A model generated the notes under the pieces. That model was not told where the DNA came from. It worked only from the letters and a program-made list of their open reading frames with translations, and made no database searches. This document shows positions 1,542-32,000 of a stretch of 32,000 nucleotides of DNA, piece after piece; position 1 is the first letter of the stretch; the number at the start of each line of letters is the position of its first letter. The stretch is from contig JBHLKY010000019.1 in the NCBI GenBank assembly GCA_048886185.1, positions 1 to 32,000 of the forward strand, written 5' to 3'. This stretch comes from Candidatus Hermodarchaeota archaeon (lineage in GTDB: Archaea > Asgardarchaeota > Heimdallarchaeia > Hodarchaeales > Hodarchaeaceae). Both the position numbers and the translations under genes were made by a program.

Positions 1542-3710
1542 ATGAATCGCAAATCCCTACTAGTAATTTACATACAATTATTTCTATTATTAGCTATTTC
1601 AATTAATACATTTAAAGTATCTATGGTCTACAAAGAAACAATTCATGATGTGATGGCTGAAAATGAACAACTTGAACAACCTCCTAAGTCTATTACAATA
1701 ATTAATGGTATTCACGGACCGATGATACCAACCTTTCATCCAATGTATGATTCTCATTCATTACTTTCGCTCCCTTTTGATACACTTGTGGAAATAGATC
1801 CCATCACGAATGATGTCATTCCATCTTTAGCTAAACAATGGGTTGTAACTAATGACAGTAGACAATGGACCTTTTATATAAGAGAAAATGTTACATGCCA
1901 TGATGGTTCTAAATTCAATGCATCTGCTGTAGCTGCTGCATTTGACATGATTCTCGATCCAAGTAAAGTAAAGGGATATAATCCAGAGGAACCGTTTGAG
2001 GCAATACATGCCTATTATACAATGCCTCTTGAGTCTATACATATTATAGATGAATATATGATTCGTATTACATTTTCAATTCCCTATTCATCTTTTATAC
2101 GGATTCAAGCGTCTAGGATACGAATACCTTCATTGACAAGTTATCCTGCGATTAATATTGAGGATTTTAACTTGCCCATAGGCAGTGGCCCTTATATGCT
2201 TCAGAAAATCACCAATGAAGCTAACTACAACAATTATACATTCACAAAATTCAGCAACTATTTTCGTGGTGAGCCTCCTTTTGAAACAATCCATTATCTA
2301 CTTTATTGGAACTTAGAAGATGCTAATGAGGCCGTTCTAAATCAAAAAGGAGAGGTTGGTCCTTTGTATTCCGGTGAAATAGTGAATAATTCAGATATTA
2401 ACCTAGATTACTGGAGAATAAGCAAATATCAACAATTTGCAAATGGTTTAGATATTGGTTTCATTAATCATCAAAGGACTGCTGCCCTCACTAATAGGGA
2501 CGTTCGTCTCGCATTAAATTATGCTATCAATAAACAAGAATATATCGAGAGGACAACACTTGGATACCCACTTGATTCCTACATTCCAAAATCCCTCATT
2601 GTAGATAAATCTTTATGGAATGATTCTATTTTAAGCATTCCTTTCGATCCTGAACTTGCAAATACACTTTTAGATAAAGCAGGATATCCAAGAAAGAGTG
2701 AACTGGAAGGGTATCGTTTTACTCTAACAGTAGATGGAATTCCGATCATGAAAGACGAAATTATAGAAATTATGAAATCTCTTGACAAGATCGGTGTTAA
2801 ATGCGTTAGTACGATTCCCGATAATACTGGTGATATTGATTGGTTTAATGAGTTCTACCGGGGTGATTATGACATTTTTTTTCTAGGATTCGCTTTTACT
2901 AACGATTGGAGTTACAATGCATATGCACTTCTCAATTCCAAAGGAGCGCAAAACATTGGAACTCATGTCTTTGATCCTATTCTCGAAACTTTTACCTCTT
3001 TGGCCATTCAAACCCCAGTAAAGCAAGAGAAACACTTCTACCTCTCCAGGGTAGTTAACAGATTAGTTGAATATGTACCCCATATATTATTAGCAGAGAT
3101 GGAGTGTGGATATCTCAAAACAGCGTCAGTAGAGTCTCATATTTGGGTGGATCCTATTCCTCAAGGAGGAATATATTTTAATTTCGACAATAATCAAAGA
3201 ACAATTCCAAAAATAATCGAGAATGTCGAGATCACAAATCAATCGATTTATTTTCCATTTACTGATGGAATCATCACTACAAAGAAAAAATTCACGGTAA
3301 CTTCTGAAATGAGTTATAATTTACACACATTCAATCAAAAGGAAAAAGGAAAATATTTCAAAACAACTGTCGATGACCAAAAAACAGAATATTTTTTCCG
3401 TTGTTATTATGATCCTTATGAAATTGTTACTCCTGTAGATGAGGGGATTCCTGTATTTCTATGGGATGACCAATCTCAAGAATGGAAAGAAATTAAATCA
3501 GTGGTCAGAAATTCAAGCCTTAATTATGTTGAGATCAAAGTAGAAGGCGATATCCTCGTACGGGTTGGAGAAGGAATTATTGAACTTACTTTCAAATACT
3601 TTCCTGGAGTTACAATAGCTTTGGGGGTTTTTGTAACAATTGCTGCAGTCACTATTTACTACAATTATAGGCAAACAAATTATTTAAGGAGAGAGTATGA
3701 ACTGAAATGA
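1542..3710 (+). CDS. Family 5 (OppA/DppA-like) extracellular solute-binding protein with an extra C-terminal domain and TM anchor
   Basis: Canonical motif order DTLVEIDP..IPSLAKQW..WTFYIRENVTCHDG, PIGSGPY, DVRLALNYAINK; hydrophobic N-terminus; about 130-aa beta-rich extension, then a TM and short basic tail. ATG 1542 (MNRKSLLVIY) preferred over the track start at 1485. Confidence 0.85.
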   Translation: MNRKSLLVIYIQLFLLLAISINTFKVSMVYKETIHDVMAENEQLEQPPKSITIINGIHGPMIPTFHPMYDSHSLLSLPFDTLVEIDPITNDVIPSLAKQWVVTNDSRQWTFYIRENVTCHDGSKFNASAVAAAFDMILDPSKVKGYNPEEPFEAIHAYYTMPLESIHIIDEYMIRITFSIPYSSFIRIQASRIRIPSLTSYPAINIEDFNLPIGSGPYMLQKITNEANYNNYTFTKFSNYFRGEPPFETIHYLLYWNLEDANEAVLNQKGEVGPLYSGEIVNNSDINLDYWRISKYQQFANGLDIGFINHQRTAALTNRDVRLALNYAINKQEYIERTTLGYPLDSYIPKSLIVDKSLWNDSILSIPFDPELANTLLDKAGYPRKSELEGYRFTLTVDGIPIMKDEIIEIMKSLDKIGVKCVSTIPDNTGDIDWFNEFYRGDYDIFFLGFAFTNDWSYNAYALLNSKGAQNIGTHVFDPILETFTSLAIQTPVKQEKHFYLSRVVNRLVEYVPHILLAEMECGYLKTASVESHIWVDPIPQGGIYFNFDNNQRTIPKIIENVEITNQSIYFPFTDGIITTKKKFTVTSEMSYNLHTFNQKEKGKYFKTTVDDQKTEYFFRCYYDPYEIVTPVDEGIPVFLWDDQSQEWKEIKSVVRNSSLNYVEIKVEGDILVRVGEGIIELTFKYFPGVTIALGVFVTIAAVTIYYNYRQTNYLRREYELK

Positions 3711-4282
3711 AATCTCTTGATGATAAAAAAGATTTGTCACCAATAGAAGAAGATGATGTTTTAACTTATTCTCCGATTTTTTCCTTTATCCAACGAATTC
3801 TCCCCTTAGGGTTTCAAAAAATGCCAGACGATGAAGAATCAACGCAACGTAAAGAAGTCCTAAAGGGTAAACCTCTTCAAGTATATTGGTACCTTTTGAC
3901 GCATGGTGCTGCTGGGGTACGGGAAATTCAAAAATCTCTAAACTTCTCTTCACCCGGGGTAGTTTCGTATCAACTCAATAAGCTTTCTGAATTGGGAATC
4001 ATTTCACAACATGAGGATTCAGATAAATATTACATAAAAGAGGAAGTTAAATCAGGAATTCTTGGATTTTATGTGCGGGTTGGATATCGAATGATTCCCC
4101 GCTTTTCCATTTACTTAAGTTTGTTTATTTGTGGGTTTCTTGCCTTTTTTGTATTCTCCTTCACCATGGGTGATGGTTTCATTACTCATCCTGGAAGCAT
4201 TTTACTTTTTTTGTTTCTAACAATTGGGACACTAGTTTTTGTCTTTGAATCGCGAAAAATCTGGAAGATTCGGCCAGATTGA
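3707..4282 (+). CDS. Membrane-tethered winged-helix transcription regulator (wHTH plus 2 C-terminal TM)
   Basis: VYWYLLTHGAAGVREIQKSLNFSSPGVVSYQLNKLSELGII helix-turn-helix/wing pattern, two hydrophobic helices at the C-terminus; ATGA overlap with the upstream stop. Confidence 0.8.
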   Translation: MKSLDDKKDLSPIEEDDVLTYSPIFSFIQRILPLGFQKMPDDEESTQRKEVLKGKPLQVYWYLLTHGAAGVREIQKSLNFSSPGVVSYQLNKLSELGIISQHEDSDKYYIKEEVKSGILGFYVRVGYRMIPRFSIYLSLFICGFLAFFVFSFTMGDGFITHPGSILLFLFLTIGTLVFVFESRKIWKIRPD

Positions 4283-4319
4283 GATGTTCAATCAAAAAAA
4301 TGTGATCTTTCAAAACTAG

Positions 4320-4368
4320 TGTTCTAACTTTGGTACAATAAATAATTCATTGTATTAAAGTTAGGACA
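4320..4368. promoter_or_regulatory. 18-bp palindromic operator, copies 2 and 3
   Basis: TGTTCTAA-CT-TTGGTACA (4320-4337) and TGTATTAA-AG-TTAGGACA (4351-4368), 31 bp apart, about 20 bp upstream of a TTTATATA box at 4388. Confidence 0.7.
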
Positions 4369-4485
4369 GTAAAAACCCGTGTAAAACTTTATATAGGAGT
4401 TTTGGTGATATCTACAAGTATTGTTTTATACAAATTCTGTAAATAAATAGTTTTTAGAATAAAAAAAAACAAGGATGTGTTGTGT

Positions 4486-6237
4486 ATGATGAAGAAAGAA
4501 TGGTTACTGGCTATTGGTTTTATAATTTTAATAGCTCTAATAGGACAAGGAATAAATCCTATTACTTCTGAAAAACTAGATTTAGATGATTTGGGGTATT
4601 CCACTCTCTTTGGGGGATCAGCGATTGATATTGGAACCGCAGTAACTCAAGATAGTCAGGGAAATATAATTATTGTAGGGCTTACCTATTCAACGGATTT
4701 TCCCGTAACTCCTGGAGCTTTCGACGAGACTCATAATGGAGGTGCAGATGTTTTTGTGAGTAAATTTTCCCCAGATGGGTCTTCATTAATATTCTCAACT
4801 TATATTGGCGGGAGTGCTGATGAACTACATTACTACTCAATAGATCATTGGGATTCGAAGATTGCCGTTGCGGTTGATTCTGCAGATAATATCATAGTTC
4901 ATGGTCCAACCCATTCGACTGATTTTCCCGTGACCCCTGGGGCATATGATGAAACATATAATGGAGCACTCGTTGATGGAGAGAATCATACGGGAGATAT
5001 GTTTGTTCTTAAATTAGCGAAAGATGGGTCTGATCTCTTGTTTTCTACTTATCTCGGTGGATCTGATGCAGAAGGGAATGCTCATAGTTTAGCAGTAGAT
5101 AAGTCAGACAATATCTACTTATCAGGATGGACTCGATCAATTGACTTTCCCACAACATCAGATGCATTGAATACAACGCATAATGGGAAATGGGATGCTT
5201 TTATTTCAATATTAGCGGCGAATGGCTCCTTACTTCTTTATTCCACTTATTTTGGGGGATCGAACTTTGAAGTCTACATGAACATCTTATTGGACAGTGA
5301 AAATAATATCTATATTTGTGGGGAGACCTACTCTCTAGATCTCCCAATTACACCCAACGCCTTTGATTCTGTGGGTAAATCAGTTGGGGATTATAATTGT
5401 GATGGATTTATCGCAAAGATATCAATGGATGGATCCGAACTCTTGTATTCGTCGTATATAAGCGGTTCTGACCCCGATACTATTTTTGATATGGCTGTTG
5501 ATGATTCTGGAAAAATGTATTTGGCGGGTTTTACACTTTCTTCAGATCTAGAAATCACCTCTAATGCATATGATATGACCTTCAATTCTTTGGGAGAAAC
5601 CGATGATGGCATTCTTATGAAAATCGCCCCAAGTGGAGACCTACTCTATTCCACCTTTCTTGGAGGTTCAGATATAGATGTAATTGAAAAAATCCTTCTG
5701 GACAACGAGGGTAATATCTATCTTATGGGTGTTTCTCAATCTACTAATTTTCCAACAACCTCAAATGCCTATTCAACAACACACAGGGGAAATTTCGATT
5801 TCATTATCACGAAAATGCCTTCAGATGGTTCATGTATTTTATATTCCACATATATAGGAGGAAGTGGATATGAGCCCACTTTATGGCAGGGTAGAGGTTG
5901 GCGGAATATACCTGATCTTCTACTTCTTAGCGAGAATTCTGTGGTTATTGTAGGTACCACTGATTCCACAGATTATCCCGTAACAAACAATGCGTTGAAT
6001 AAGACATTGAATGGCCAATCAGATGTCTGTATATCTCAATTGGAGCTTACCGATCTCCCAATACCCACATCAACAGAGGAAACTTCTACCAGTACGATTT
6101 CTCTACCAACAACCACTAGAGTAGAGGGGATATCAACCAGTGATTCAAAAACAACAAATCAAGTGAATTCATCATTTCTATTTCCTTTTCTGCTAACAAT
6201 AGGAATGATAATTATTGTACAACGAAAAAGAAAGTAA
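4486..6237 (+). CDS. SBBP beta-propeller repeat surface protein with Thr/Ser linker and C-terminal TM anchor
   Basis: Repeated STY(I/L/F)GGS..D...AVD..DNIY(L/I).G.T.S.DFP.T..A(F/Y)D units; signal peptide; C-terminal TM plus QRKRK. Confidence 0.88.
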   Translation: MMKKEWLLAIGFIILIALIGQGINPITSEKLDLDDLGYSTLFGGSAIDIGTAVTQDSQGNIIIVGLTYSTDFPVTPGAFDETHNGGADVFVSKFSPDGSSLIFSTYIGGSADELHYYSIDHWDSKIAVAVDSADNIIVHGPTHSTDFPVTPGAYDETYNGALVDGENHTGDMFVLKLAKDGSDLLFSTYLGGSDAEGNAHSLAVDKSDNIYLSGWTRSIDFPTTSDALNTTHNGKWDAFISILAANGSLLLYSTYFGGSNFEVYMNILLDSENNIYICGETYSLDLPITPNAFDSVGKSVGDYNCDGFIAKISMDGSELLYSSYISGSDPDTIFDMAVDDSGKMYLAGFTLSSDLEITSNAYDMTFNSLGETDDGILMKIAPSGDLLYSTFLGGSDIDVIEKILLDNEGNIYLMGVSQSTNFPTTSNAYSTTHRGNFDFIITKMPSDGSCILYSTYIGGSGYEPTLWQGRGWRNIPDLLLLSENSVVIVGTTDSTDYPVTNNALNKTLNGQSDVCISQLELTDLPIPTSTEETSTSTISLPTTTRVEGISTSDSKTTNQVNSSFLFPFLLTIGMIIIVQRKRK

Positions 6238-27292: not shown

Positions 27293-28321
27293 ATGGTAAA
27301 AATATTCTTCTGTACAGATATTCATGGAGCCGAGAATGTATGGAAGAAGTTTCTTAACGCAGGGAAGTATTTAAAAGCAGATATATTGATTATGGGAGGA
27401 GATCTCACAGGGAAACGAATGATACCAATAATTGAGCAACCTGATGGAACATGGAGAGGGATTAAATGGGAAAAATGGAGTAATCAAGAAGTAATAATGA
27501 AATCTGAGAGAGAAGTTAAGGATTTCGAAGAATATTCCCGGTCTATTGGTTATTATACTTGCCAGATAACCCCAGAAGAGAATGAAATATTATCATCGCC
27601 TGAATCTATCTTTATTGAGGATAAACTGTCAAAACCAGTAAAGGGAGGACCTTTAGATAAGCTATTTAATCATTTAATCCAAGAGAGTCTACATCGATGG
27701 CTAAATATGATCGATGATGTCATGTCTGATGGCACGAGACGTGTACCTGAAGGAACTAAGGTTATTATTTGCACAGGGAATGATGATAGTTTTATTGTAG
27801 ATGAAATCATTGATAAGGATCATCGTGTCACTTTGGGAGATGACCGAAAGATCGATTTAGATAGCAACCATGAAATGATTAGTTATGGGTGGACAACTCC
27901 AACTCCGTGGAATTCTTATAGAGAGACCACCGAGGATGTTATTAAAGAAAGAATCAATAAATTAGCCTCTACTATTAACAACATTGAAAATGCACTATTC
28001 TGTTTTCATTGTCCTCCTTATAACACTTTACTTGATAAGACTCTATTCTTAAAATCTCGGGAACCTTATGTTGGATTTGGTTCATTTTATTCAATCGGAT
28101 CTAAATGTGTTAAACAAGCTATCCAACGATATCAGCCTCTCTTATCTTTTCATGGTCATGTTCATAAGCTCGTTACTGTCTCTCACTCATCAGGATGTAT
28201 CAAGATCGGTAGAACTCATTGTATGAATCCTGGCAGTGAATACTCTTCAAATATACTGAAAGGATTCCTAGTTGAACTCAATGATAGTGAAATAGCAAAG
28301 ATACAGAAATTCCAATATTGA
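27293..28321 (+). CDS. Calcineurin-like metallophosphoesterase (Icc-related)
   Basis: TDIHG, GGDLTG, GNDD, FHCPP, HGHVH, NPGSEY. Confidence 0.88.
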   Translation: MVKIFFCTDIHGAENVWKKFLNAGKYLKADILIMGGDLTGKRMIPIIEQPDGTWRGIKWEKWSNQEVIMKSEREVKDFEEYSRSIGYYTCQITPEENEILSSPESIFIEDKLSKPVKGGPLDKLFNHLIQESLHRWLNMIDDVMSDGTRRVPEGTKVIICTGNDDSFIVDEIIDKDHRVTLGDDRKIDLDSNHEMISYGWTTPTPWNSYRETTEDVIKERINKLASTINNIENALFCFHCPPYNTLLDKTLFLKSREPYVGFGSFYSIGSKCVKQAIQRYQPLLSFHGHVHKLVTVSHSSGCIKIGRTHCMNPGSEYSSNILKGFLVELNDSEIAKIQKFQY

Positions 28322-28530: not shown

Positions 28531-29385
28531 TTAATGAACTGCGGTTATCTCTATAATTTGAGTGGATTCAAAAATAGGTTCTTCCTGAAAAACTTGCAGA
28601 ACATCTTTCTCCATTTCATCAAAGCTTGGGACTTCAGAAAAAAGAGCAGATAATTCATTTTGCCATAGTGGTTTTAGGTCATTGATTCTCTGCTTTAATT
28701 CTTCATATGAATATGTGAGACCATCATAGTCGAATTTCTCATGAAGCAATTGCCAATCAATTGAGGTCAGATTCATTAAGAAATTTATGTCAAATAAATC
28801 CTGAGATTTTTTACGGCTGAATAGGGTTCGAACTTTTTCTACTAAAGCTTCTGTGAGGGAGAATACAGTAATTGAGAATGAGGGGATGCCTGGGAAATTG
28901 GAAGTTACTTCTTTGAGAGTAGGAGAAACAATGACTGGCGATGTTGGAAATAAGTCAATGATTATGTGATGGTACAAATAGATAATTCCTTGAATTGTTA
29001 GTTTTACAGTAATATTCCCATCTCCATATTCTCGAACGTCTCCTATGCGAGCTTTGTATCCTTTTTGTTTTAATTTCACCAATAGTTCACTTATTACAGT
29101 TTCAGCAGGCACATTTCCTACGAAATCTAAATCAGCAGAGAAACGTGGCGAGTTCCAAAATTTACGGAGGGTAGTTCCTCCTTTGAAAATTATTCCTGGA
29201 GTATCTGATAAGAGATAGAGAATGAGTTCTTGGAAATATTCCTTTTCGATGAGTGCTAAATCATCAGTTCCTTTCATCTCAGCTAGATTCCGTAGATCCT
29301 CAATATTGATCCTGCAATTTGAACTAGTAGATTCTGTGATTTGCGTTTTCTTTCCGAATAAACTCTTCCTTTTTCCAAAAGCCAT
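28531..29385 (-). CDS. AbiEii/AbiGii-family nucleotidyltransferase (type IV toxin-like)
   Basis: IEKEY, IIFKGGTTL, RFSADLDF, EKVRTLFSR..QDLFDI; AGGTGA Shine-Dalgarno-like element at 29392-29397 (minus strand) supports the start. Confidence 0.87.
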   Translation of the reverse strand: MAFGKRKSLFGKKTQITESTSSNCRINIEDLRNLAEMKGTDDLALIEKEYFQELILYLLSDTPGIIFKGGTTLRKFWNSPRFSADLDFVGNVPAETVISELLVKLKQKGYKARIGDVREYGDGNITVKLTIQGIIYLYHHIIIDLFPTSPVIVSPTLKEVTSNFPGIPSFSITVFSLTEALVEKVRTLFSRKKSQDLFDINFLMNLTSIDWQLLHEKFDYDGLTYSYEELKQRINDLKPLWQNELSALFSEVPSFDEMEKDVLQVFQEEPIFESTQIIEITAVH

Positions 29386-29403
29386 TATTTTTCACCTAAT
29401 CAA

Positions 29404-29438
29404 TGTAATACATTTCTGTATTACATATGTGTATAACA
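29404..29438. promoter_or_regulatory. Three TGTAWWACA boxes at 13-bp period upstream of the AbiEii-like gene
   Basis: TGTAATACA 29404-29412, TGTATTACA 29417-29425, TGTATAACA 29430-29438; they lie between a minus-strand TTTTTAAG (29441-29448) and the SD element. Confidence 0.75.
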
Positions 29439-29757
29439 TACTTAAAAATGTTTGCATAATTTTTATTTCTTTAAAAATTAAAACAAAAGAATTAGGTTAA
29501 ATAATAGCTTCTTTTCAAGAGAAAATACCAATAGATTTACATGATAGAAGAAAAGCAAGGAGAAAAAATAAATTGAATTCTATTTTTAATCATTATTGTT
29601 ATTAAAAACCCTCTAAATTCAACTGGATCCCTATATCCGTCATAGTTCGTTCTTAGCCATGCTTAATAAACCTATTTAATAATACACACCTATTGAAGCA
29701 TATTTCAAGAGTAATTAGTAAAAATAAGTCATTTTGAAAGAGTTTGAACTTTATAAA

Positions 29758-29840
29758 TGTTTAACATTTTAAGTAAGAACTCCGAAATATTGCAAGGAAT
29801 TTAACAAAAAATTTTAATTGTATAACACGAATGTATAACA
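29758..29840. promoter_or_regulatory. TGTWWWACA boxes upstream of the AbrB-LRR-wHTH gene
   Basis: TGTATAACA 29819-29827 and 29832-29840 (13-bp period) directly before TTTATTAATA (29841-29850); isolated TGTTTAACA at 29758-29766. Confidence 0.7.
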
Positions 29841-29885
29841 TTTATTAATATCAGAATATCATATGTTGCTGTAGATGATTTGCAC

Positions 29886-31073
29886 ATGAATACTAGTTTT
29901 GAGCGTTTATCTCGTCAGATAATTAAAGTAGGCAATAGTTATGCTGTAGCAATTACCCCATCTAAAGCTAATAAATTTGGTTTTGAACTTGGGGTCAAAG
30001 TTCAGGTAGGAATCCGTAATGGGTTAATAATTATCAGCCGTGAAAATGATGTAGATGAATTAATGAGATCAGAAACTTTTAGCGGGCATAAACCACTAAT
30101 AAAGGTAAATGAGCAGAATTTGCAAGGGCTTAATGAGCTAGCAAGTGAACTAGGAATAACTTCTGCTGACTTGGTAAATCAACGGATTTATGGTTATAAT
30201 GGCAATCTTAGATTGGGAGAAAAAAGACGCAGAGCTATCATTCGCCGTCAACAAGTAATTGTGTTGAACCTCGATCTCATGAAGATTACTCATTTCCCTG
30301 AAAATATCAATGGTGATCAATTCCCAACACTTAGGGGGTTAAGAATGGCTGGTTGTCAGTTGAGGGATGTTGATCTCTCCTCTCTGAGTTTAATCCCATC
30401 TTTGGAGAAACTAGTGCTCACAAACAATGAAATTGATGAAATTGAGCTTTCAGCATTATCTAATCTCAAAAAATTGAGTGAATTACATATCGATAGTAAT
30501 TTACTTGACCAAATTAACTTAAATCCCTTAAAGGATTTGAAATTGATAGAAACTCTAAATTTAAGTGGCAATGAACTAGAAGAAATTGACTTGAGTCCAT
30601 TAAAAGATTTAAATTCCCTGAAGGAACTTTATCTCGATAATAACTATATTGAAAAGATCGATCTTGATCCTTTGAGTCAAAAAACAGGATTATTCCTATC
30701 ATTGGAAAATAATCCTCTCCAGGATATCGATCTCGAACCACTATTTAATATTGACAATCTACACCTAGGTCTTCCTAGGGAACTTTCTCATAAAACACTA
30801 GAACAAGTGCGAGCTCTCCAAGAAATGGGGGTTCAAATGTCCGTAAAACCACTGAGAAAATTAACTACTGGTGAAATATACAATTTACCATTCGAATTAC
30901 AGGATTTAGCAATAACAATGCTCTCTTTAGTAGAGGGTACAGTAGATGAGATAGCTCAAGCTATCGATGTTCCCATAAACGAAGTGTTACCAAAAATTGA
31001 GACTCTTCAAATGATGGGATATATCGGAAAAATACAAAAAGGAGGAGAAACGGTCTATTTTCGATCACAATAG
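29886..31073 (+). CDS. AbrB/MazE-like DNA-binding domain, leucine-rich repeats and C-terminal winged HTH fusion
   Basis: RQIIKVGNSYAVAITPSKANKFGFELGVKVQVGIRNGLIIISRE (swapped hairpin); about 6-7 LRRs of about 24 aa (LxxLxLxxNxLxxIDLxPL); GTVDEIAQAIDVPINEVLPKIETLQMMGYIGKIQKGGETVYF. ATG 29886 preferred over TTG 29880. Confidence 0.82.
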   Translation: MNTSFERLSRQIIKVGNSYAVAITPSKANKFGFELGVKVQVGIRNGLIIISRENDVDELMRSETFSGHKPLIKVNEQNLQGLNELASELGITSADLVNQRIYGYNGNLRLGEKRRRAIIRRQQVIVLNLDLMKITHFPENINGDQFPTLRGLRMAGCQLRDVDLSSLSLIPSLEKLVLTNNEIDEIELSALSNLKKLSELHIDSNLLDQINLNPLKDLKLIETLNLSGNELEEIDLSPLKDLNSLKELYLDNNYIEKIDLDPLSQKTGLFLSLENNPLQDIDLEPLFNIDNLHLGLPRELSHKTLEQVRALQEMGVQMSVKPLRKLTTGEIYNLPFELQDLAITMLSLVEGTVDEIAQAIDVPINEVLPKIETLQMMGYIGKIQKGGETVYFRSQ

Positions 31074-31168: not shown

Positions 31169-32000
31169 ATGAATATGTCTAATAAACCTCTAAAAACATT
31201 ATCCATCATGTCTCACAAAGGAGGCGTGGGAAAAACTTCGATTGCTGTTAATATTGCTGTTTATTTAGCAAAAACAGGAAAAAACGTATGCTTGCTTGAG
31301 AATGATTTTCAAGGTCCTTCTCTGAATACTTGGTGGAAACCTGAAGTTACGTGGATAAACCATTACTTACTAGATAGTGCAAGTATAAATGATTGCCTGC
31401 AAAACATCTCTCCCAAATTGAATCTTCCAGGAAAGCTTCTTGTTGGATTTGCTGATCCTACTCCAGAGTCAATTCAAAGAAATATTCGAATAGATCAGGA
31501 AGATTCTATGAAAATGCTGCAAAATCTTGTAAGAGCTAAAACTACACTTAAAGAAGACCCTTATAAAATTGAATATCTTATCAATGACTGTTCTCCTGGT
31601 ATAGGCTATTCTGCTGTTAATGCAATGATAGCAGCAGATTCTAGTTTGTTTATTGTGAAGTTAAGCAATGCTGATATTATTGGTACTTCTCTAATGATTA
31701 AAGGTTTGTACAAGCAGCTAAAAAAACGAACTCTCGTATTAGCAAACCTAATTCCTAAAGAAGTCGTCAATGATGATGAAAAGAAGAAATTAGCTCAGGA
31801 ATTGGTGGAAAAGGCTTTAGTAGAACCCATTGGGGATTCTACTCACATTTTCCAGTTTACTGGGTGGATACCTACTGATAGCACTTTGATTTCCCTTGAG
31901 TTTGAACAAGCTTTAAAAACACTAAGTGGGGAGGACTCTTCTAGGATTATTTACACACTAGATCAGCCAGAGCATATTTTCTCAACAACACTCATGAAAA
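31169..32000 (+). CDS. MinD/ParA-family ATPase, partial (runs off the window end)
   Basis: Manual translation MNMSNKPLKTLSIMSHKGGVGKTSIAVNIAVYLAKTGKNVCLLENDFQGPSL...YLINDCSPG; deviant Walker A; stop-free to 32000; absent from the ORF track. Confidence 0.88.
   Translation, partial: MNMSNKPLKTLSIMSHKGGVGKTSIAVNIAVYLAKTGKNVCLLENDFQGPSLNTWWKPEVTWINHYLLDSASINDCLQNISPKLNLPGKLLVGFADPTPESIQRNIRIDQEDSMKMLQNLVRAKTTLKEDPYKIEYLINDCSPGIGYSAVNAMIAADSSLFIVKLSNADIIGTSLMIKGLYKQLKKRTLVLANLIPKEVVNDDEKKKLAQELVEKALVEPIGDSTHIFQFTGWIPTDSTLISLEFEQALKTLSGEDSSRIIYTLDQPEHIFSTTLMK

Follow-up and report, generated by a model that had tools for sequence, protein, structure and literature searches.

In a 32,000-nucleotide stretch from Candidatus Hermodarchaeota archaeon (assembly GCA_048886185.1, contig JBHLKY010000019.1, positions 1 to 32,000; hereafter the window), there is a row of four genes: a metallophosphoesterase (MPE) gene, an AbiEii-type nucleotidyltransferase gene, a gene combining an AbrB/MazE domain with leucine-rich repeats (LRRs) and a winged helix-turn-helix (wHTH), and a ParA-type ATPase gene. 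The AbiEii/DUF1814 nucleotidyltransferase (284 aa), recognized by Pfam, PADLOC, a PDB match and alignment, is encoded on the reverse strand at 28531..29385. A 494-bp spacer of 24% G+C (29386-29879) separates it from the divergent AbrB-LRR-wHTH gene (395 aa; 29886..31073, forward strand), which starts at the ATG at 29886, conserved in orthologues, and not at the TTG at 29880. After a further 95 bp, on the same strand, follows the gene for a ParA/MinD-type deviant-Walker-A ATPase (283 aa; Pfam AAA_31, ParA and CbiA), which occupies 31169..32000 of the window and extends 17 bases beyond its end, to 32017, before the stop codon. The assembly is sound at the locus, as four DNA contig sets from one study, probably of the source sample, span or cover it without joints; none of the sequence sets listed for it is of RNA. 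Judged by homology, the cassette belongs to the ParA-wHTH family as an AbrB-LRR variant that carries AbiEii as exchangeable cargo.

The two ends of the spacer carry arrays of the same short box. On the AbiEii side, three 9-bp near-palindromic boxes with a 13-bp period (TGTAATACA, TGTATTACA and TGTATAACA; 29404..29438) are placed between a TATA-like element and the Shine-Dalgarno (SD) sequence of AbiEii. The SD-like element, GGTGA at 29392..29396 on the reverse strand, lies ahead of the AbiEii ATG, and its position is kept in 6/7 orthologous promoters. The element at 29440..29453 (reverse strand) resembles a B-recognition element (BRE) and TATA box; it reads AAACATTTTTAAGT in the AbiEii sense and AAGGTTTATAAATA in orthologues, and this phylogenetic footprint suggests that it acts as the AbiEii promoter. 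On the LRR side, two boxes, TGTATAACA in both cases and again with a 13-bp period (29819..29840), abut a TATA-like TTTATTAAT at 29841-29850. Upstream of them lies an AAT/CATTTAACAA element (29795..29808, forward strand), shared by every orthologous LRR promoter and possibly a further TATA/BRE candidate. A single box, TGTTTAACA (29758..29766), precedes this proximal pair by 61 nt, with the same spacing in two related loci (L001 and L006). Written as TGTWWWACA, the boxes thus start at 29404, 29417 and 29430, at 29819 and 29832, and singly at 29758.

These arrays are unique in the genome and conserved among relatives. TGTWWWACA occurs 256 times in the 4.84-Mb genome, and two copies within 40 nt are found solely in the three pairs of this locus. 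When orthologous loci are compared, the spacer is conserved at its two ends alone, and the boxes form islands in unconserved sequence; about ten related loci keep the arrays. In seven lineages, the AbiEii side has the fixed order TATA, three boxes, SD (GGTGA) and ATG, and on the LRR side of orthologous loci a conserved AAACATTTAACAA element is followed by two boxes abutting TTTATTAAT and by the start codon. The boxes also co-vary with the regulator gene. On one related contig (L003), a 10-bp variant, TGTTATAACA, replaces the box at the promoter of the paralogue P0010 and likewise at the adjacent AbiEii promoter (5685-5706 and 5960-5969), and the paralogue P0007 on the same contig keeps the 9-bp TGTATAACA (747-768 and 1401-1432), which is the pattern expected if the two paralogues were insulated against cross-talk. 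This contig also carries two tandem ParA genes beside the two AbrB-LRR-wHTH paralogues. In L001, a 4.3-kb insertion (1660-5870), a stretch of small unannotated ORFs, splits the spacer and leaves AbiEii 4.3 kb away from the LRR gene, and each array remains with its own gene. No box arrays were found at ParA loci whose partner is without an AbrB domain, and because the arrays are absent there, AbrB is the probable reader of the boxes. The placement of the arrays on both promoters fits repression, in that a bound protein would, on the toxin side, occupy the site where the transcription machinery assembles. A locus-specific regulator very probably controls both promoters.

The AbiEii protein appears to be an intact enzyme. 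It matches PF08843 with an E-value of 1.3e-23 and the PADLOC AbiEii model with 3.7e-39, and its best PDB match is 6y56, a 293-aa DUF1814-type chain. In an alignment with 11 relatives, K68, G69 and G70, the R81-F82-S83-x-D85-L86-D87 motif, and E179, E183, K184, R191 and D196 are invariant, and T71 of the GGT motif is kept in at least 90%. By this alignment, the catalytic residues are under purifying selection. The cassette clade has in addition a specific basic N-terminal extension of roughly 25-35 residues. The protein is the only AbiEii copy in its own, 96% complete genome.

Its usual antitoxin is missing. The 494-bp spacer has no free ORF longer than 31 aa, and none of the five AbiEi Pfam families (AbiEi_1, _2, _3, _3_N and _4) has a match in that genome. 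The closest AbiEii outside the cassette clade, with 48% identity, belongs to another species of the genus (G012) and keeps the canonical layout (L020:6182-7640), with an overlapping upstream gene for a 235-aa AbiEi-like protein that weakly matches AbiEi_1 (E 5e-4). By tblastn, this AbiEi-like protein has no counterpart either in the window's genome or at any of the cassette loci. Since no AbiEi is detectable by Pfam or tblastn while the G012 homologue has one, the AbiEii of the window is truly without its usual antitoxin, which has been lost. An antitoxin hidden in the spacer was considered and ruled out, as the spacer is unconserved between loci, orthologous spacers share no ORF, and it has no Rfam or tRNA match.

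An earlier, sequence-only reading of this stretch had described most of these features: an AbiEii-type enzyme with its GGT and R-x-S-x-D-x-D motifs, no AbiEi-like ORF upstream, a divergent neighbour joining AbrB/MazE, LRRs and a wHTH, and the same periodic boxes at both promoters. All of these descriptions are borne out, and the observation as a whole is confirmed far beyond chance. Furthermore, the pairing extends beyond one genome. In at least seven lineages (window, L001, L003, L006-8, L010, L063 and L064), AbiEii and the AbrB-LRR-wHTH gene are arranged divergently, with 55-82% identity. The identities to the window's AbiEii, LRR protein and ParA are 79/79/84, 75/79/87, 75/75/82, 59/59/70 and 57/55/75% in related loci, and the flanking genes differ at every cassette locus. 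Since the three proteins diverge in step while the flanks are reshuffled, the linkage itself appears to be under selection.

This evidence bears on one explanation of the locus, that AbiEii is an orphan, possibly domesticated or inactive, which is tied to the LRR gene only by chance or inherited synteny across a bidirectional intergenic region. The loci are confined to one narrow clade, AbiEii is missing or found elsewhere in some members, and the context is not one of defence, as such an explanation would have it. Yet the arrays abut the AbiEii start at every linked locus and co-vary with the paralogue, they stay beside AbiEii despite the 4.3-kb insertion, the trio stays together among reshuffled flanks, and the catalytic residues are held by purifying selection. 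We therefore regard mere synteny as very improbable.

The divergent protein has an unusual domain architecture, assigned by means of family profiles, Pfam, AlphaFold2 (AF2) and Foldseek. The AbrB/MazE domain spans residues 10-52 (29913-30041). In the PDB, the family profile of this domain matches exclusively AbrB/MazE/SpoVT chains (E 0.013-0.1); Pfam MazE_antitoxin matches 3/11 family members (best E 1e-6), and AF2 gives a b-b-a-b-b order for residues 13-52 with low confidence. The linker region that follows (residues 72-122, 30099-30251) holds two motifs: a highly conserved two-helix motif, NLQGLNELASELGITSADLVNQRI, in a part predicted with low confidence (residues 72-102; weak Pfam IF2_N match), which presumably resembles helix-extension-helix motifs, and an invariant basic, arginine-rich motif, LRLGEKRRRAVIRR (residues 108-121). 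About seven LRRs (residues 126-300, 30261-30785) match Pfam LRR_4 and LRR_8, are predicted with a local confidence score (pLDDT) above 90, and resemble internalin and Roco LRRs in Foldseek. A ParA-associated winged helix (residues 318-395, 30837-31070) closes the protein; AF2 predicts an H-S-H-H-S-S order for residues 336-393, and there is a weak TrmB match. No other architecture containing the AbrB and linker module was found. Pfam and AF2 show no STAND-type nucleoside triphosphatase (NTPase) domain in this protein, and the adjacent ATPase is of the SIMIBI/ParA type; the protein is thus not an STAND/NLR-like receptor, in which the LRRs are fused to a STAND NTPase.

The winged-helix tail connects this protein to ParA. 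In every locus where the contig allows (window, L001, L003, L004/5, L006-8, L009-11, L063, L064 and L065), the LRR gene is followed by the ParA gene. ParA is the best-conserved protein of the cassette, with 63-87% identity vs 54-79% for the LRR protein, and its KGGVGKT motif is invariant. Searching species genomes with the ParA alignment revealed 19 more loci, in Hodarchaeota and Heimdallarchaeota assemblies, with 48-65% identity, and 0/19 of these have an AbrB-LRR gene or AbiEii. Instead, in most of them ParA is directly followed by a gene of 165-213 aa, or in a few by two such genes in tandem (L023, L024, L026 and L040). Over their last ~77 residues, these partners show homology to the window protein's tail (hhalign probability 99.85, E 1.2e-30), and a longin-like fold of their head is supported by its b-b-a-b-b-b-a-a order and a weak Fuz_longin_1 match. 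Among 1.84 billion representatives, the tail profile had 251 matches, which include short helix-plus-wHTH proteins, longin-type proteins of 205-219 aa, a single AbrB-LRR cluster, poly-HTH proteins and a V4R-wHTH protein (P0126), whose operon also encodes a ParA-like ATPase and a Roadblock protein. An Atlas feature search of the tail returned generic wHTH leads only, with scores below 0.8.

These features correspond to a system described by Li, Burroughs and Aravind (bioRxiv 10.64898/2026.10.19.760177), the mainly archaeal ParA-wHTH system of the ConB2 assemblage, which is predicted to be immune and in which ParA is accompanied by one or more rapidly evolving wHTH genes, some fused to V4R or profilin/longin-like domains. 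Compared via the written description of that system, the window and its relatives match it point for point: a ParA-clade ATPase adjoins a gene with a distinctive wHTH tail, and the tail here is homologous to those of the archaeal partners. The differences are that the head here consists of AbrB, basic linker and LRRs, that the partner gene comes before parA, and that the locus has specific iteron operators and a divergent AbiEii cargo gene. The main text of that preprint mentions neither LRR nor AbrB nor Asgard.

Some of the other ParA loci showed further features. In three of them, ParA extends into a long C-terminal region, in frames of 570-906 aa (L027:3992-6700, L028:4007-5746 and L029:3919-5301; likewise G007:C227 and G016:C64), with no separate wHTH partner gene; upstream of ParA, L027-L029 also have a gene whose product has a CARF-like N-terminus. 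Seven longin-wHTH loci (L022-L026, L034 and L040) have a gene for a ~750-aa DEAD/DEAH-type helicase upstream of ParA, preceded in 5/7 by an SMC/Rad50-like ATPase fragment; this association may be plain synteny of close relatives.

Based on these results, we favour, with moderate confidence, a co-regulated ParA-wHTH-type cassette that contains a silenced toxin. It would be a lineage-specific accessory cassette of Hodarchaeales, built upon the archaeal two-gene ParA-wHTH core. In most Heimdallarchaeia, this core consists of ParA and a partner with a longin-like (or V4R) head and a winged-helix tail; in the cassette clade, AbrB/MazE, the basic linker and about seven LRRs have taken the place of this head, and the partner gene precedes parA. 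As a dimer, and most likely via AbrB, the AbrB-LRR-wHTH protein would bind the 9-bp palindromic TGTAWWACA boxes spaced 13 bp apart, one array overlapping the regulator's own promoter and the other lying between the TATA element and the ribosome-binding site of the divergent promoter. From these positions we propose that the regulator represses both itself and the divergent gene. The latter, mostly an AbiEii toxin of the tRNA-modifying type without AbiEi, would be kept harmless mainly through transcriptional silencing, until a signal received via the LRRs and/or the ATP cycle of ParA lifts repression, frees the toxin and arrests growth. Box binding by this protein, repression, the trigger, toxicity and a role in defence are the predicted elements of this scheme, and they build on observed gene content, domain homologies, box uniqueness and conservation, co-variation and linkage.

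Several observations weigh against this scheme, most of them concerning the cargo. AbiEii is absent from the cassettes of the L004/L005/L066 lineage (54% identity) and of L012, and no AbiEii remnants were found in L004 and L012, relaxed thresholds included. In the L004/L005/L066 lineage, the promoter with TATA, three boxes and SD drives not AbiEii but an S8 peptidase of ~1160 aa with N- and C-terminal membrane anchors (L004:1073-4582; promoter region 4480-4680). In L003b and L012, the same promoter drives two or three tandem basic peptides of 30-36 aa with the motif KKERxIKAARLIP (L003:382-760 and L012:4316-5126, both on the reverse strand); no peptide of this type is encoded in the window's genome. 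The regulator may thus simply control whatever lies behind this promoter. Furthermore, on another contig of the genome that contains L012, an orthologous AbiEii (L013) occurs without boxes, LRR gene or AbiEi, so that silencing is not the sole safeguard, or the enzyme is not very toxic. Other points concern the proposed role in immunity. The immune function of ParA-wHTH systems is itself only predicted (bioRxiv 10.64898/2026.10.19.760177). The association with defence islands that the sequence-only reading had proposed to test was not found: among ten flanking proteins in the window's own genome, taken as a test of context, PADLOC gave no match except a WD40-repeat similarity, and Pfam showed no defence genes. 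Viral contigs contained no relatives of the cassette. Finally, the LRRs are not hypervariable, with a conservation of 0.80 at concave positions vs 0.72 at convex and loop positions, and the conserved concave face gives no sign of an arms-race surface. The LRRs may rather have a conserved partner as their ligand, for example ParA or the N-terminal extension of AbiEii. Taken together, the cargo swaps and L013 leave the regulator, ParA and the two box arrays as the constant unit, and AbiEii is its most frequent but replaceable cargo.

The same observations apply to a narrower explanation, close to that of the sequence-only reading, in which AbiEii and the AbrB-LRR-wHTH protein form a two-gene pair. 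Here, the latter would replace AbiEi both as repressor and as direct neutraliser, its LRRs would sense a viral protein, and ParA would be incidental. AbrB/MazE folds are classic DNA-binding domains of antitoxins, the operators are common to both promoters, and the conserved basic extension gained by AbiEii in this clade could be a peptide bound by the LRRs. However, the linkage of ParA to the LRR gene is tighter than that of AbiEii, and no protein of the cassette is more conserved than ParA; the wHTH tail belongs to the ParA-partner family, AbiEii can occur where the LRR protein is missing (L013) and the reverse holds for L004 and L012, and the LRR surface is not hypervariable. With respect to type II toxin-antitoxin (TA) systems with an AbrB/MazE antitoxin, the protein does have the swapped-hairpin domain, but it is no small co-transcribed antitoxin: it is a multidomain protein of 395 aa, divergent from the toxin and, by gene layout, co-transcribed with ParA. 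We consider the two-gene pair improbable. What stands of the proposed toxin-regulator module are the shared box arrays and the absence of a classical antitoxin; its restriction to two genes does not, as it overlooked the invariable ParA and as AbiEii is dispensable.

The surroundings of the cassette are ordinary. It lies among ordinary chromosomal genes of a 94-kb contig, and by Pfam its neighbours encode solute-binding proteins, peptidases, WD40 receptors and a small GTPase. The last, a Rab/Arf-like gene located from 32021 onward, converges on ParA with the stop codons 3 bp apart. It was rejected as part of the module: none of the orthologous cassettes has such a neighbour, and its position next to ParA therefore looks incidental. 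An integrated mobile element was likewise ruled out, given the absence of an integrase and of border repeats, the mere 3 bp that separate the stop codon of ParA from that of the GTPase gene, and the lack of relatives on viral contigs.

The combination of ParA, a DNA-binding partner and repeats also suggests a partition or positioning module, in which the AbrB-LRR-wHTH protein would serve as an adaptor that binds the centromere, the arrays would be both centromere-like and autoregulatory, and AbiEii would be an addiction-type or co-regulated passenger. A predicted site-specific DNA binder is indeed paired in an operon with a deviant-Walker-A ATPase, the iteron arrays beside the operon formally resemble those of partition systems, and we take the invariant arginine-rich LRLGEKRRRAVIRR to resemble the basic ATPase-stimulating peptides of ParA partners. 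The MPE gene, found in circularly permuted positions, may be counted in its favour as well. In formal terms, the locus thus has ParA, a predicted DNA-binding partner and repeats, as a ParABS segrosome does, but not a segregated replicon or lineage-wide conservation. The chromosomal setting of the cassette, with ParA ending 3 bp from the GTPase gene, speaks against partition, as does the fact that no replication gene, integrase or plasmid hallmark lies near it. Longin-type ParA partners, moreover, are without iterons. The distribution points in the same direction. The full-length AbrB-LRR-wHTH gene occurs in 1/24 species genomes of the order, the window's own, and a metagenome scan added a single further locus; the ParA subfamily is patchy, with 0-3 copies per genome, being present in 15/21 other species of the genus and in none of several sister families. 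Such patchiness is unlike a housekeeping segregation system, and a role in partition seems to us rather unlikely.

The fourth gene of the row, MPE (27293..28321, forward strand; 342 aa), encodes a divergent calcineurin-like metallophosphoesterase (Pfam Metallophos, E 1.2e-5) and is optional. It accompanies the cassette in two circularly permuted positions: four loci (window, L001, L006 and L008) have it tail-to-tail before AbiEii, whereas in L063 (2178-3194) and L065 (2342-3358) it follows ParA on the same strand. It is absent from more distant cassettes, contig C5 of the window's genome carries a 55% paralogue, and PDB and NCBIfam searches gave no specific assignment. AbiEii-type toxins are switched off via reversible autophosphorylation, and the site in the Streptococcus agalactiae protein, T65, aligns with T71 here (bioRxiv 10.64898/2026.01.19.700257). 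Because of this reversible silencing, the linked MPE is a candidate re-activator of AbiEii. A more elaborate reading would combine these parts into a four-part, antitoxin-less immune switch: the AbrB-LRR-wHTH protein would silence the toxin promoter, the ATP cycle of ParA together with an LRR ligand would bring about release, MPE would re-activate AbiEii autophosphorylated at T71, and the cargo (AbiEii, the surface S8 peptidase or the tandem peptides) would be interchangeable. If true, the archaea most closely related to eukaryotes would possess a modular system with swappable effectors, in which the LRR sensor itself reads the DNA; we regard it as a decidedly long shot.

Compared with known systems, the favoured cassette combines familiar parts in a different arrangement. 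AbiE/MenA-MenT of Lactococcus, S. agalactiae and Mycobacterium tuberculosis share with it the DUF1814/AbiEii fold with GG[ST], RxSxDxD and the distal Asp, the phospho-acceptor position (T65 in S. agalactiae, T71 here), and repeated operator sites that guard the toxin promoter, as predicted here. Unlike them, the cassette has no AbiEi/COG5340 gene at the locus or genome-wide; its putative repressor is divergent rather than co-transcribed, with an AbrB domain in place of the wHTH and C-terminal domain of AbiEi; a ParA ATPase is part of the unit; and the toxin carries the clade-specific N-terminal extension. Site-specific binders are also encoded with ParA on plasmids. The omega protein of pSM19035 regulates the epsilon-zeta toxin system as well as the ParA gene delta, and for omega/delta/epsilon-zeta as for AspA-ParB-ParA of Sulfolobus pNOB8, segregation is proven; both serve plasmid partition, with ribbon-helix-helix (RHH) or wHTH binders. 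These systems resemble the cassette in having a site-specific binder at arrays of short repeats that is encoded with ParA, and differ from it in being without LRRs, whereas the cassette is chromosomal and sporadic.

There are also ternary ParA systems that have captured a type II TA, consisting of a toxin, a repressor-type antitoxin and ParA; the toxin of one subtype is a Pol-beta nucleotidyltransferase that was compared with MenT (bioRxiv 10.64898/2026.10.19.760177). These systems share with the cassette its three components, a toxin, a DNA-binding repressor-type protein and ParA. There, the sensor (TPR, SAVED, NACHT and others) is fused to ParA, whereas here ParA is plain, the sensor-like LRRs are on the repressor-like protein and the toxin is divergent.

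AbiEii/MenT toxins are generally held to require a cognate AbiEi/MenA partner. The clade studied here as a whole retains an intact AbiEii without AbiEi, apparently wired to a different regulator via a clear and testable operator code, and should the cassette prove ordinary after all, it would be a clean case of transcriptional control replacing an antitoxin. It also offers a concrete handle on the predicted ParA-wHTH systems, with defined DNA sites and a defined output gene, and nature has provided variants in which heads (longin, V4R and AbrB-LRR) and cargo are swapped. Because the operator code and these natural variants are in hand, the cassette is unusually easy to test. Finally, LRRs within a cytoplasmic DNA-binding protein are, as far as we know, unusual in prokaryotes, and an Asgard protein predicted to join LRRs to DNA binding bears on how LRR sensing and nucleotide switches may have been combined before eukaryotes arose.

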